Shown here piece after piece: positions 53,305 to 57,921 of a stretch of DNA of 64,000 bases. The stretch's first letter is position 1; every line of letters begins with the position of its first letter. The position numbers were made by a program, and so were the translations under genes. The notes under the pieces are model-generated. The model did no database searches. It was not told the DNA's origin and saw only the letters and a program-made list of their open reading frames with translations. The DNA is taken from positions 21,020-85,019 of the forward strand of contig CACGEC010000001.1 in assembly GCA_902572005.1 (NCBI GenBank). Direction: 5' to 3'. The DNA comes from an uncultured Pelagibacteraceae bacterium. GTDB taxonomy: Bacteria; Pseudomonadota; Alphaproteobacteria; Pelagibacterales; Pelagibacteraceae.

Positions 53305-53625
53305 ATGCCAGTACAAAAAGCAAAATTTTCAATAGGTGACATTGTAAAGCATAAACACTTTGAATTTAGAGGCGTTATATATGATGTTGATTTTGAATTT
53401 AATAATTCAGAAGAGTGGTATCAATCAATACCAAAAAACGTAAGGCCGAGAAAAGACCAGCCTTTTTATCATCTTCTTGCAGAAAATGACGAAATTACTT
53501 ATGAGGCATACGTCTCAGAGCAAAACTTGTTAATGGATGACTCTGACGAACCTATTAAGCATCCATTAATTGAAGAAATTTTTTCAGGAAAAAAAGGATC
53601 TAGTTATTTCAAGCTTTCTAACTAA
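53305..53625 (+). CDS. hspQ: Heat shock protein HspQ (YccV)
   Basis: KFSIG, FRGVIYDVD, RPRKDQPFYHL, YVSEQNL. Confidence 0.94.
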   Translation: MPVQKAKFSIGDIVKHKHFEFRGVIYDVDFEFNNSEEWYQSIPKNVRPRKDQPFYHLLAENDEITYEAYVSEQNLLMDDSDEPIKHPLIEEIFSGKKGSSYFKLSN

Positions 53626-53652
53626 AAATCACTTTTTAAACACAATTAGTTC

Positions 53653-53757
53653 AAATCTTTGACACAGCAATCTGTTAATTTTGGTAATTCTGGTCAAGAG
53701 TGTTAATTATTTGCCCTTCGTTATTATCTCCCTCTACATTCTTGATCAGAAAGATTT
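53653..53757 (+). ncRNA. Candidate structured RNA (unassigned)
   Basis: 16-bp stem 53688-53703/53736-53751 with two G-U pairs on the + strand only; 32-nt pyrimidine-rich loop; extra helices possible. Confidence 0.45.
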
Positions 53758-53799
53758 TTCATAATAAAAATTCATAAATAAATTAAGATAATAATTAAA

Positions 53800-54513
53800 A
53801 TGTTTAAATATTTTGAGCCAAATAAAATTTTTTCTATCACATCAAAAGCACCTAAGTACGTTTTGTTTTTATTTATAGTTATATTTTCCATTGGCTTGAC
53901 TGAAGCACTTATCTTATCTCCAGAAGACTATAAACAAAGTCACTCAGTTAGAATAATGTATGTACACGTTCCTGCAGCATGGATTTCTCTGGGTATTTTT
54001 TCCTCTATAACTTTTTTATCCGTGGTTGGATATATTTTTAAAATCAGAAATTTTTTTTTAATTTCAAAAAGCTTAGCACCTTCTGGTTTGGTTTTTAACA
54101 TCGTTGCTTTAGTAACTGGTTCAATTTGGGGAAAACCAACCTGGGGAACTTGGTGGGCTTGGGATGCTAGAATAACATCTATGTTAATACTCGCTTTATT
54201 TTTTGTAATGTATTTAGTTGCATGGAGAATTTATGAGAATAACGATAATGATAAAGTATATAAAATTACCTCCATTATTACACTTGTAGGAATTATAAAT
54301 ATTCCAATTATTAAGTATTCGGTAGAATGGTGGAATACTCTTCATCAACCAGCCTCAATAAATATTTTGTCAAAATCAGCAATTCACACCTCCATGTTGA
54401 TTCCATTATTGATCATGACTGCGGCATTTGCTCTTTTTTCTCTATTAATTTTTTTAATGAAATATAATACAGAACTGATAAAAATTAAGAACAAAGGCTT
54501 AGATAGATTATGA
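53800..54513 (+). CDS. ccmC: Heme exporter CcmC
   Basis: MYVHVPAAW, WGKPTWGTWWAWDARITS, WWNTLHQ. Confidence 0.97.
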   Translation: MFKYFEPNKIFSITSKAPKYVLFLFIVIFSIGLTEALILSPEDYKQSHSVRIMYVHVPAAWISLGIFSSITFLSVVGYIFKIRNFFLISKSLAPSGLVFNIVALVTGSIWGKPTWGTWWAWDARITSMLILALFFVMYLVAWRIYENNDNDKVYKITSIITLVGIINIPIIKYSVEWWNTLHQPASINILSKSAIHTSMLIPLLIMTAAFALFSLLIFLMKYNTELIKIKNKGLDRL

Positions 54514-54737
54514 TTAACGATTTATTTTTTATGAATGGATACGGACTGTATGTATGGTCCGCTTTTGCATTTACTTTATTAAGTTTTATTTCATTATTTA
54601 TTGTAACAAAAATCCAATACACTAAAGAAAAAAATAAATTTATTGTTAAATTTGGAACTTTAAACTCCGAAAGAGCTTCATTTGCAAAGTCTCAAAGTAT
54701 TAATAAAGAAATTTTATCTAACACTTCAATTATTTAA
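54510..54737 (+). CDS. ccmD: Heme exporter CcmD
   Basis: M.GYGLYVWSAF single TM between ccmC and ccmE. Confidence 0.85.
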   Translation: MINDLFFMNGYGLYVWSAFAFTLLSFISLFIVTKIQYTKEKNKFIVKFGTLNSERASFAKSQSINKEILSNTSII

Positions 54738-54747
54738 CTTTTAAACC

Positions 54748-55167
54748 ATGTATGGTAAAAAAGTTAAATTAAGATTTTTTTTTGTATTATTAGTTTTAAT
54801 TACTTTAATTTTATCTATTTTTTTAATTTTAAAATCACTTGAAGAAAATGTAGTTTATTTTCAATCTCCCTCAGAGATTCAACTTTTGGAGGAAATTGAA
54901 AAAAAAAAGATAAGGGTTGGAGGCATGGTAAAAAATAAATCAATTTCAATCAAAGCCAAAGAGATCAGATTTATTATTACTGACTTCAAAAATGAAATTA
55001 ATGTAACTTACTCTGGAGTAGTTCCAAACCTTTTTAGTGAAGGAAAAGGTGTGGTCGCTGAAGGCTACTTAAAAGATAAAAGTTTTTTTATAGCTACTAA
55101 AATTTTAGCCAAGCATGATGAAAATTATATGCCACCCGAGGTAAAAGCGGCTTTAGAGGAGAAATAA
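54748..55167 (+). CDS. ccmE: Heme chaperone CcmE
   Basis: [28 protein letters not shown]. Confidence 0.96.
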
Positions 55168-55170
55168 ATT

Positions 55171-57051
55171 TTGTTTAGTTTAATTGGATTTTACGCATTA
55201 ATTTTTGGAATTTGTTCATCACTTTTAATTATTTTGTTTTCAATCAAAAATTTTAAGAATTCCATGATTTTCGATAACAAAATAGTAACATTTACTTTTT
55301 TACAATTTTTTTTCGTTATAATCAGTTTTTTGGGTTTAATTATGTCATTTGTAAATTCAGATTTTAGTAATGAAACTGTTTTTAACCATTCTCATACAAC
55401 AAAACCACTTTTTTATAAAATTTCAGGAACTTGGGGAAATCATGAGGGGAGTTTGTTACTTTGGTTATTAGTATTAACATTATTCATATTTTTATTTTTA
55501 ATAAAATCTAAAGACCAAACTAAGCAATACAGAATTTTGACTTTATTATTTCAACAAATAATTATTATTGGTTTCTTTACTTTTTTGATTAAAACCTCAA
55601 ATCCTTTTAATTATATTTTCCCAATTCCAAATGAAGGCTTAGGACTTAATCCAATACTGCAAGATCCAGCTTTAGCAATTCATCCTCCAATTTTATATTT
55701 AGGTTACGTTGGATCTTCAATAATCTTTTCATCAACGCTAGCAGCTACTACTTTAAACTATATCTCAAAAGAATGGGCAAAGCATATTAAGCAATGGGTT
55801 TTAGTCTCGTGGATTTTCTTAACAATAGGAATTTTATTGGGATCAATTTGGGCATATTATGAACTAGGTTGGGGTGGTTTTTGGTTTTGGGATCCAGTAG
55901 AGAATGTTTCTTTGATGCCTTGGTTAGCTTTAACGACACTTCTTCATTGTATTTTAGTTTTAGAAAAAAGATTAACTCTAACATCTTGGGTAGTTGTTTT
56001 ATCTATATCTACTTTTACATTAAGCATGTGTGGCACATTTTTAGTAAGGTCAGGTATCTTAAATTCTGTTCACACTTTTGCTAATGATCCTGAGAGAGGT
56101 TTGTTTATTTTAATTTTCTTATTTTGCTTAATATTCATGTCTCTTTTTATTTTTTTCTTTTTTCATAAAGTAAAAAATAAAGACTCCAACAGTTTTTTTT
56201 GGCTGAGCAAAGAAACGTCAATTTTAATTAATAATTGGTTTATGATGTATTTTCTAGCAGTAGTTTTAATTGGTACTATTTATCCAATTTTTTTAGAGGT
56301 AATTTCTTCTGAAAAAATTTCTGTTGGACCACCCTTTTATAATAAATTGATAATCCCTTTTTTAATTCCTTTTTTATTTGCTATGGCTATTGGGCCAAAA
56401 CTAAATTGGATAAAGTCAGAACTCGAGAATAAAACATATTTAGTTTTATTTTTAATTTTATCACTCTTGGTTTCAGTGTTCACAATTAAAAACTTAAATG
56501 TAAATTTTTTAATAAATACAGTTTTAGTTACCTCAGCATTTTATTTATTTTTTATTACATTAAGAGATTTTTTTACAAAAAAATTTAAAAACCTATCCCA
56601 AAATATTGCTCATTTTGGTTTTAGTTTATTAATTTTAAGTATTTTGTTTAATAATATATTTTCAACAGAGATTATAACAAACTTAAAAATTGGTGAAACT
56701 TATGAGGGAGCTGAATTCAAAATTAATTTCGAAAAGATAGAACAAAAAAATGAAAAAAATTTTAAAGCAATAATAGGAAAATTTAATATTGAAAATTCAA
56801 ATGGTACTATTGAAAATTTGAGACCAGAATTACGAATATATAATCAACCAAATATTGTAACGAGTGAGGCTGACATAAAAACTAATTTATTGAAGGATAG
56901 TTTCATAACTATGAATCTCGTGCAAAATCAAGATTATTTTAATATTAGATACCAAATCAAACCTTTTATGATTTGGATTTGGTTTTCAGTTTTATTGATA
57001 ACCTTGGGTGGTTTAAAAAGTTTAATTTTAAACAAAAGATATGAAAAGTAA
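55171..57051 (+). CDS. ccmF: Cytochrome c heme lyase CcmF
   Basis: WGNHEGSLL, HPP, WAYYELGWGGFWFWDPVEN, SVHTFA. Confidence 0.97.
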   Translation: MFSLIGFYALIFGICSSLLIILFSIKNFKNSMIFDNKIVTFTFLQFFFVIISFLGLIMSFVNSDFSNETVFNHSHTTKPLFYKISGTWGNHEGSLLLWLLVLTLFIFLFLIKSKDQTKQYRILTLLFQQIIIIGFFTFLIKTSNPFNYIFPIPNEGLGLNPILQDPALAIHPPILYLGYVGSSIIFSSTLAATTLNYISKEWAKHIKQWVLVSWIFLTIGILLGSIWAYYELGWGGFWFWDPVENVSLMPWLALTTLLHCILVLEKRLTLTSWVVVLSISTFTLSMCGTFLVRSGILNSVHTFANDPERGLFILIFLFCLIFMSLFIFFFFHKVKNKDSNSFFWLSKETSILINNWFMMYFLAVVLIGTIYPIFLEVISSEKISVGPPFYNKLIIPFLIPFLFAMAIGPKLNWIKSELENKTYLVLFLILSLLVSVFTIKNLNVNFLINTVLVTSAFYLFFITLRDFFTKKFKNLSQNIAHFGFSLLILSILFNNIFSTEIITNLKIGETYEGAEFKINFEKIEQKNEKNFKAIIGKFNIENSNGTIENLRPELRIYNQPNIVTSEADIKTNLLKDSFITMNLVQNQDYFNIRYQIKPFMIWIWFSVLLITLGGLKSLILNKRYEK

Positions 57052-57559
57052 AATTTTTCAAATTTTTTTAACAATTTTTTTTATTATGATATTTTTTATT
57101 TTTTATAAAGGATTAAAAAATCCAAATATTTATGTACCCAAGAATAGTCTCGAAAAAGATATCCCATCATTTAAGGCAAAAATATTTGATAATAATACCT
57201 TAGTTACTTCAGAAGAAATTTTTAAAAGAGATAAATTTTATTTAATGAATATTTGGGCTTCTTGGTGTTTACCTTGTAGAGAAGAACATCCCTTTTTAAT
57301 GGAACTACATAGTAACAAAAATTTAGAAATCATTGGACTCAATTATAAAGATAAAAAGAAAAATGCTTATAAATTTTTAAAAGAATTAAACAATCCATAC
57401 GAAATAATAATTTTAGATAAAGATGGAACTTTAGCAATTGAATGGGGAGCTTATGGTGTTCCAGAAAGTTTTTTAATTCAAAATCAAAAAATAATAAAAA
57501 AAATTATAGGGCCATTGAATAAAGATTTATTTACTGAAATTAAAAGATTAATAAAATGA
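57041..57559 (+). CDS. ccmG: Thiol:disulfide interchange protein CcmG/DsbE
   Basis: WASWCLPCREEH, NYKD, YGVPESF. Confidence 0.94.
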   Translation: MKSKIFQIFLTIFFIMIFFIFYKGLKNPNIYVPKNSLEKDIPSFKAKIFDNNTLVTSEEIFKRDKFYLMNIWASWCLPCREEHPFLMELHSNKNLEIIGLNYKDKKKNAYKFLKELNNPYEIIILDKDGTLAIEWGAYGVPESFLIQNQKIIKKIIGPLNKDLFTEIKRLIK

Positions 57560-57921
57560 AAAGTATAAAATATCTTATTATAATCGTATTTTTATTTTCT
57601 ACTAGTTTATCTAATGCTCAAGAGAAAGATTTACAAAATAAAATTACAAAAAATTTGCGTTGTTTAATTTGTCAAGGACAATCAGTTTATGATTCTGACT
57701 CAGATTTTGCAAATAGTGTAAAATTATTAATTGAGAAAAAATTAGACGAGGGTCAAAATGAAAAACAGATATACGAATATTTAAAAAATAAATATGGAGA
57801 TTGGATCTTGTATGATCCGAAATTTGATAAAAATACGTATTTTTTATGGTTAATGCCTATATTGCTATTTATAATTGGGGGTGCAATAATAGTGAGATTA
57901 TTTATTATTAAAAAAAATTAA
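57556..57921 (+). CDS. ccmH: Cytochrome c biogenesis protein CcmH (CycL)
   Basis: LRCLICQGQS, YGDWILYDP, LW.MP. Confidence 0.93.
   Translation: MKSIKYLIIIVFLFSTSLSNAQEKDLQNKITKNLRCLICQGQSVYDSDSDFANSVKLLIEKKLDEGQNEKQIYEYLKNKYGDWILYDPKFDKNTYFLWLMPILLFIIGGAIIVRLFIIKKN

Follow-up and report, generated by a model that had tools for sequence, protein, structure and literature searches.

A copy of the PBC-3 hairpin in the hspQ-ccmC spacer of a Pelagibacteraceae genome and its possible partner RNA

The hspQ-ccmC spacer and its hairpin

The stretch of DNA analysed here, referred to as the window, comprises 64,000 nucleotides from the genome of an uncultured Pelagibacteraceae bacterium (assembly G000). 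It carries hspQ, the gene for a YccV-like protein, followed on the same strand by ccmC and the remainder of the cytochrome c maturation genes (Table 1), CcmD and CcmE being the next products after ccmC according to Pfam. A gene for a PagL-like secreted protein (lipid A 3-O-deacylase, PF09411; 57935-58447, + strand) starts 13 nt past ccmH. The gap between hspQ and ccmC measures 174 bp and contains no + strand open reading frame of at least 30 amino acids, in agreement with the initial annotation of this DNA, which had singled it out as a long spacer with no ORF exceeding about 15 codons. The 16-bp stem that had been proposed there is present and consists of 14 Watson-Crick and two G-U pairs when read on the + strand. 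Folded by itself, the + strand hairpin reaches -20.0 kcal/mol compared to -8.4 +/- 2.4 kcal/mol for shuffled sequences (z -4.86), a value that none of 200 shuffles equalled; the corresponding - strand fold yields a z of -1.14, and the whole spacer folded on the + strand gives a weaker signal than the hairpin alone (z -1.72). Two minor helices that had also been suggested, AAATCTTT/AAAGATTT and TTGACA/TGTTAA, can be drawn in this sequence but are absent from relatives, and we count them as chance pairings rather than as structure because the relatives do not keep them. The hairpin occurs once per genome.

Table 1. Positions of the genes and sequence elements around the hairpin, and of the sRNA-1 locus
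Feature	Position	Strand	Basis	Remarks
hspQ	53305-53625	+	ORF; Pfam PF08755, E 6e-30	YccV-like, hemimethylated-DNA-binding; usual upstream neighbour of the hairpin
Upstream block AACACAATTAGTTCAAATC	53639-53657	+		90-99% conserved in 78 unique same-genus spacers; accompanies the hairpin
-35-like hexamer TTGACA	53659-53664	+		G-N-C-A core kept in 28/28 representatives
Weak -10-like hexamer TGGTAA	53682-53687	+	inferred from sequence	17 nt past the -35-like box
PBC-3 hairpin, 5' arm TTCTGGTCAAGAGTGT	53688-53703	+	sequence, folding, covariation	
Loop	53704-53735	+		32 nt, G-poor pyrimidine; 5' half variable, 3' half TTATTATCTCCCTCT (53721-53735) conserved; CUCCCUC at 53728-53734
UCUCCCUCUAC	53727-53737	+		perfect 11-nt complement of the G000 sRNA-1 loop GUAGAGGGAGA
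PBC-3 hairpin, 3' arm ACATTCTTGATCAGAA	53736-53751	+	sequence, folding, covariation	
T5 run, then TTTTCATAATAAA	53755-53768	+		TTTTCATAATAAA (53756-53768) 90-99% conserved in 78 same-genus spacers
ccmC	53800-54513	+	ORF; Pfam PF01578 (cytochrome c assembly)	opens the ccmCDEFGH block, 53800-57921
sRNA-1	G000:C15:9375-9463	-		outside the window, between convergent ORFs; loci L043, L056; GAAUCG linker; hairpin GGGUGGU/ACCACCC with loop AGAGGGAGACUGAA

The loop enclosed by the stem varies from 17 to 36 nt among relatives and is distinctive in its composition: averaged over 28 representatives it contains 30.7% C, 3.6% G and 44.7% T, compared to 14.8% C and 14.6% G in the genome. Nearly all representatives of 17 genera carry CUCCCU(C) at the 3' side of the loop, and a few same-genus relatives have UCCCCUC, CCCCCUC or AUCCCUC in place of CUCCCUC. 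Two exposed motifs had been highlighted in the initial annotation; one of them, CTCCCTCT (53728-53735), is near-invariant, but the other, GCCCTTCG, falls within the variable 5' half of the loop.

These features identify the spacer hairpin as a copy of the PBC-3 motif, which has thus been known since 2019. The motif was described by Stav et al. (2019, BMC Microbiol 19:66, Additional files 1 and 3) in an analysis of the SAR11 strain HIMB5, with NC_018643.1/1311103-1311283 as type example and 1111 unique examples, exclusively from SAR11, as a single large covarying stem with a conserved CUCCCUC, flanked by YccV and a gene for cytochrome c biogenesis. The authors termed it cis-regulatory and suggested a polypyrimidine-binding protein or an sRNA as its ligand. 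The hairpin analysed here shares with the published motif the long covarying stem, the CUCCCUC loop, the position between co-directional YccV-like (hspQ) and cytochrome c (ccmC) genes, the orientation and the restriction to SAR11, and structurally there is no difference between the two. The earlier description of the spacer as unannotated is therefore correct inasmuch as Rfam holds no model for it, but not with respect to the literature. In a search of the window against Rfam 15 at the gathering threshold the only match was a tRNA elsewhere in the window, and when matches with E values up to 10 were considered, the best one to the hairpin region (E 0.36) was to an unrelated snoRNA model, far under the gathering cut-off. 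The SAR11 RNA motifs of Meyer et al. (2009; text and supplements) do not include one from the hspQ-ccmC spacer, and we found no follow-up on PBC-3 or on SAR11 sRNAs in the later literature that was searched.

Conservation of the hairpin, its flanks and its neighbourhood

In order to assess the stem across the family, we independently aligned 28 sequences, representing 17 Pelagibacteraceae genera, with MAFFT and applied RNAalifold to the result. Thirteen pairs were predicted, and compensatory changes were found at all 13 of these core pairs. Paired cells make up 96.6% of this alignment, as opposed to 80.8% in shuffles and 25-49% when the partners are slid against each other, and the non-Watson-Crick pairs comprise 39 G-U and no A-C on the + strand. 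A model-fitted alignment of 38 sequences gave 96.2% pairing when read on the + strand and 83.3% on the - strand, and the covariance model scores 95 bits in the sense and 28 bits in the antisense orientation. The stem comprises 11-19 bp among the relatives, and in other genera the arms have very different sequences yet keep their complementarity, for example GCCTAATTAAG/CTTAATTAGGC, GTCCAGTTTGAAG/CTTCAAACTGGAC and TGTCTGGTTTGGAG/CTCCAAACCAGACA. The helix is upheld by compensatory change in every sampled genus of the family, and only the + strand is able to form it. Covariation and the strand asymmetry of the G-U pairs strongly support the earlier proposal of a structured RNA read from the + strand with an exposed C-rich, anti-Shine-Dalgarno-like loop, and the PBC-3 hairpin ranks among the best-conserved non-coding elements of Pelagibacteraceae. 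The relatives carrying it are named Pelagibacteraceae or Candidatus Pelagibacter; distant genera were missed by the model built from this genus (R2) and were read directly downstream of hspQ instead.

Within the genus, the spacer can be aligned end to end in 20 of the 20 genomes searched. The blocks conserved among 78 unique same-genus spacers are the upstream block, the TTGACA hexamer, both stem arms, the 3' half of the loop and TTTTCATAATAAA, while the 5' half of the loop and the stretch from the -35-like box to the stem are variable. A match to the hspQ region was obtained in 131 of 151 genomes (a tally that includes G068, a genome used for no other result). One same-genus genome (G238:C1:1191897-1192215) shows the hspQ match as two overlapping pieces covering residues 1-80 and 79-106, which suggests a frameshift or an assembly error.

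The hairpin is accompanied by a promoter-like region on its 5' side. The upstream block may belong to the RNA, or it may be an activator site or an UP-like element; all genera have a related block, ..AAATT.AACA..TT...CAAA.., in its fuller form ..GCC.CAAATT.AACA..TT...CAAA...tnGACA, which remains with the hairpin where genes are inserted after hspQ. Among the 28 representatives, the end of the G-N-C-A core of the -35-like hexamer lies 22-30 nt (median 26) ahead of the helix core, and A/T-rich TA...T-like hexamers are found at the -10-like position in other genera. A consensus promoter scan did not call TTGACA at 53659-53664 because the -10 is weak. The initial annotation had considered this hexamer as a -35 box that might reduce the element to a promoter; the assignment as such is reasonable given the conservation of the hexamer, with the sigma-70 start expected at the stem base or a few nucleotides inside. 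With canonical sigma-70 spacing from the -35-like box, transcription would begin 0-8 nt within the 5' arm, and the outer pairs covary all the same.

On the 3' side, the T5 run and TTTTCATAATAAA could, judged by their sequence, represent a U tract trailing the hairpin, a ccmC -10 box (CATAAT, 53760-53765) or both; no evident -35 goes with this CATAAT. TTTTCAT is seen again in g16, g19 and g8, and only 6 of the 28 representatives have a T-run of at least four no more than 13 nt from the helix. The hairpin does not resemble an intrinsic (Rho-independent) terminator, having a loop of 32 nt (17-36 in relatives) rather than 3-8 and a T-run in only this minority of representatives, and a terminator scan produced no + strand call at the hairpin.

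The -35-like block and the hairpin behave as a unit that is always found 45-110 nt upstream of a co-directional gene, and in nearly all genomes the hairpin lies 10-70 nt past the hspQ stop codon. Rearrangements in some of the relatives separate the unit from its usual neighbours. A 244-aa ORF is inserted after hspQ in G125 (genus g5) and about 3.8 kb in G014 (g14), and in both cases the whole unit is still located ahead of ccmC. In g4 and g11, the ccm genes are found elsewhere, with ccmC following ccmE at a gap of 54-58 nt in which there is no motif, while the unit stays after hspQ and ahead of the homologue of the PagL-like gene of the window. The unit is hence bound to neither hspQ nor ccmC, and this independence argues against a 3' element of hspQ as well as against a strictly ccmC-specific leader; a leader specific to the ccmCDEFGH block is likewise weakened, since g4 and g11 retain the hairpin although ccmC has moved. 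The rearrangements fit both a leader of whichever operon follows and an independent small RNA. In the sister family f2, the motif was not found next to hspQ or next to ccmC. A yciB/ispZ-like membrane protein gene lies 5-30 nt after hspQ in f2 (L243-L253), a gene that in the window is located upstream of hspQ on the other strand, and ccmB directly precedes ccmC in f2.

sRNA-1 as a proposed partner

Stav et al. (2019) noted that the P2 loop of another SAR11 RNA, sRNA-1, carries GAGGGAG, the exact complement of the PBC-3 CUCCCUC, and that both occur in the same genomes, and they proposed the two as partners. Using a model built from sRNA-1 candidates (R1), we found a single copy of sRNA-1 in G000 and likewise in every one of the 20 further same-genus genomes searched, as well as copies in g4, g5, g8, g9, g13 and g19. 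The G000 copy resembles the published sRNA-1 in its GAAUC(A/G) linker and in the hairpin with a GAGGGAG loop, and no stretch of the G000 assembly is complementary to the PBC-3 loop over a greater length than this loop. Only one other site of the assembly (G000:C1:89903, + strand), about 4.9 kb past the end of the window, has 10 nt complementary to the loop (UAGAGGGAGA); it apparently lies within a coding region. No complementarity was found between the loop and the ribosome-binding region of either ccmC or the PagL-like gene, so that a simple self-sequestration is not expected.

Over 31 genomes, the loop-loop duplex of PBC-3 and sRNA-1 has a mean energy of -13.6 kcal/mol compared to -8.5 +/- 2.8 kcal/mol for shuffled loops, where the energies are approximate and the sRNA-1 hairpin is mis-set in several rows. 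Co-variation between the two loops was not detected in these 31 genomes, the equally approximate energies being -13.6 kcal/mol for cognate and -14.0 kcal/mol for non-cognate combinations (permutation p 0.94), and the sRNA-1 loop variants UAGGGAG, GCGGGAG and GGAGACCGAGAGG occur without compensation in PBC-3. Judging from the sequences, the complementarity is real and is based on two conserved cores rather than on co-variation. A search with R1 and two patterns, perhaps too narrow, gave no sRNA-1 in five genomes of at least 95% completeness that retain the PBC-3 hairpin, two from g12 and one each from g14, g17 and g2; the matches that this search returned in g12, g14, g17, g2 and g10 were coding sequence or ordinary ribosome-binding sites.

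In same-genus genomes, the sequence AACACAATTAGTT (53639-53651) ahead of PBC-3 is similar to AACTAATAAGTGTT, found ahead of sRNA-1, when the latter is read as its reverse complement. We regard this resemblance as probably due to chance, as it fades in other genera and involves A/T-rich DNA.

Possible functions of the hairpin

The stem apparently serves to keep open a G-poor pyrimidine loop ending in CUCCCU(C). The reading we favour, tentatively and with slightly less than even confidence, is that the unit comprises a promoter and the 5' leader hairpin of a transcript running into the downstream operon, here ccmCDEFGH together with the PagL-like gene, and that sRNA-1 or a pyrimidine-reading factor docks onto the loop. 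The yield of full-length or stable transcript would then depend on base pairing of the loop with a G-rich RNA or on its occupation by a factor such as Rho, with the contact at the loop tuning transcript stability or read-through. As RNA partner in this genome, sRNA-1 would be the best candidate, its GAGGGAG loop offering 11 perfect pairs. Searches of 5 complete genomes, in which the positive controls worked, found no Hfq, ProQ or CsrA, and an RNA-RNA contact is therefore probably direct and would be expected to take place from loop to loop. Loop-loop ('kissing') antisense pairs may serve as an analogy, since they share with PBC-3 and sRNA-1 a G/C-rich loop complementarity of 7-11 nt and Hfq was not found here. 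Rho is present in the same 5 genomes and could be affected by a C-rich, G-poor patch ahead of an operon; the small RNA control of Rho at mRNA leaders may offer a second analogy, with such a patch lying in the leader ahead of the operon. The lack of a T-run after the hairpin in most genera fits read-through into the gene.

The main alternative, which we consider possible but rather unlikely, is a stand-alone trans-acting small RNA whose transcription would be driven by the -35-like promoter, with its 5' end at the stem base and its 3' end a short distance past the hairpin, and which would use CUCCCUC as an anti-Shine-Dalgarno seed on G-rich ribosome-binding sites, with sRNA-1 acting as a sponge or co-regulator. 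Such an RNA would account for an anti-Shine-Dalgarno-like loop that is constant whichever gene follows, for the retention of the unit where the ccm block has moved, and for the spacing between the -35-like box and the stem base, which suits a promoter. In this genus, the T5 run and the conserved CATAAT that come after the hairpin argue against a leader and fit a short RNA of this kind followed by a separate promoter for ccmC. The hairpin is also kept in genera where sRNA-1 was not found, and small RNAs of bacteria without Hfq usually have C-rich loop seeds. On the other hand, a terminator-like end is missing in most genera, and the hairpin is always near, and co-directional with, a downstream gene, as a leader would be. 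GAGGGAG-like sites detected in a quick scan of G000 lie mostly inside genes and only few of them at a ribosome-binding position, and no conserved target was found. Two observations fit poorly to a leader and to a stand-alone small RNA alike, namely a start 0-8 nt inside the 5' arm despite the covarying outer pairs and the scarcity of terminators after the hairpin in most genera. AbcR1/2 and CcsR/'cuckoo' are alphaproteobacterial anti-Shine-Dalgarno small RNAs, and the likeness to AbcR put forward in the initial annotation holds as an analogy but does not extend to a match with an Rfam family. These RNAs and PBC-3 would have in common a C/U-rich single-stranded loop able to pair with purine-rich ribosome-binding sites; PBC-3, however, consists of one hairpin with a very large loop rather than of tandem short hairpins, and it occurs where Hfq was not found.

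Recognition of the pyrimidine loop by a protein instead of an RNA, be it a polypyrimidine-tract binder, Rho at a rut-like C-rich and G-poor patch or ribosomal protein S1, appears improbable to us. The loop composition, 75% pyrimidine and 3.6% G, would suit such a factor, as would the presence of Rho and the lack of detected co-variation with sRNA-1. A Rho loading site spans about 60-80 nt, for which a loop of 17-36 nt is short; there is so far no candidate protein, and the exact complement of 7-11 nt in sRNA-1 would have to be a coincidence. The name of the motif and the suggestion made by Stav et al. (2019) nevertheless point towards a protein of this kind. A terminator or stabilising stem-loop at the 3' end of the hspQ mRNA, which the proximity to the hspQ stop codon in nearly all genomes and the T-run of this genus might bring to mind, is very improbable, considering that G125 and G014 have genes between hspQ and the hairpin and still keep the whole unit, that the loop is conserved in sequence and much larger than a terminator loop, and that T-runs are as infrequent as described above and the terminator scan gave no call. 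We give the least credence, close to none, to an element acting on the DNA level only, that is, an inverted-repeat operator or promoter architecture for which RNA folding would be irrelevant. The inverted repeat does adjoin the -35-like box, but its arms are 17-36 bp apart at a variable distance, the half-sites change completely between genera and yet remain complementary, and all 39 of the 39 non-Watson-Crick pairs are G-U on the + strand with no A-C, a bias not expected from DNA or from a symmetric protein site.

One might speculate that SAR11 uses PBC-3 and sRNA-1 as a regulatory pair of RNAs acting through direct contact of the CUCCCUC and GAGGGAG loops, in which sRNA-1 would either gate the cytochrome c maturation operon at its leader or titrate PBC-3 as an anti-Shine-Dalgarno regulator; we hold this to be conceivable, though doubtful. 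If true, it would be the first riboregulator pair with a defined mechanism in the most abundant marine bacterium. SAR11 cells are very poor in transcription factors, a shortfall that RNA-based control is assumed to cover in part. In most members of the family the hairpin precedes the cytochrome c maturation genes, whose products handle haem and hence iron. Relative to the published motif, the present analysis adds that the unit is free of both ccmC and hspQ, locates the proposed partner RNA in the same genome and bases the idea of a partnership on conserved complementarity rather than on co-variation.

Further elements are seen downstream of the hairpin in other genera. A second short C-rich patch (CUUCCC or UUUCCC), which might be a second single-stranded pyrimidine site, lies 10-20 nt past the hairpin in g5, g14, g4 and g15 (for example L026, L111, L104 and L024). 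Genus g4 (L024-L030) additionally carries another, small hairpin, the loop of which resembles GTTTATTTTT, about 60-100 nt past the PBC-3 hairpin; it directly precedes the GAAGG ribosome-binding site of the PagL-like gene, and its short arms vary from genome to genome yet stay complementary.
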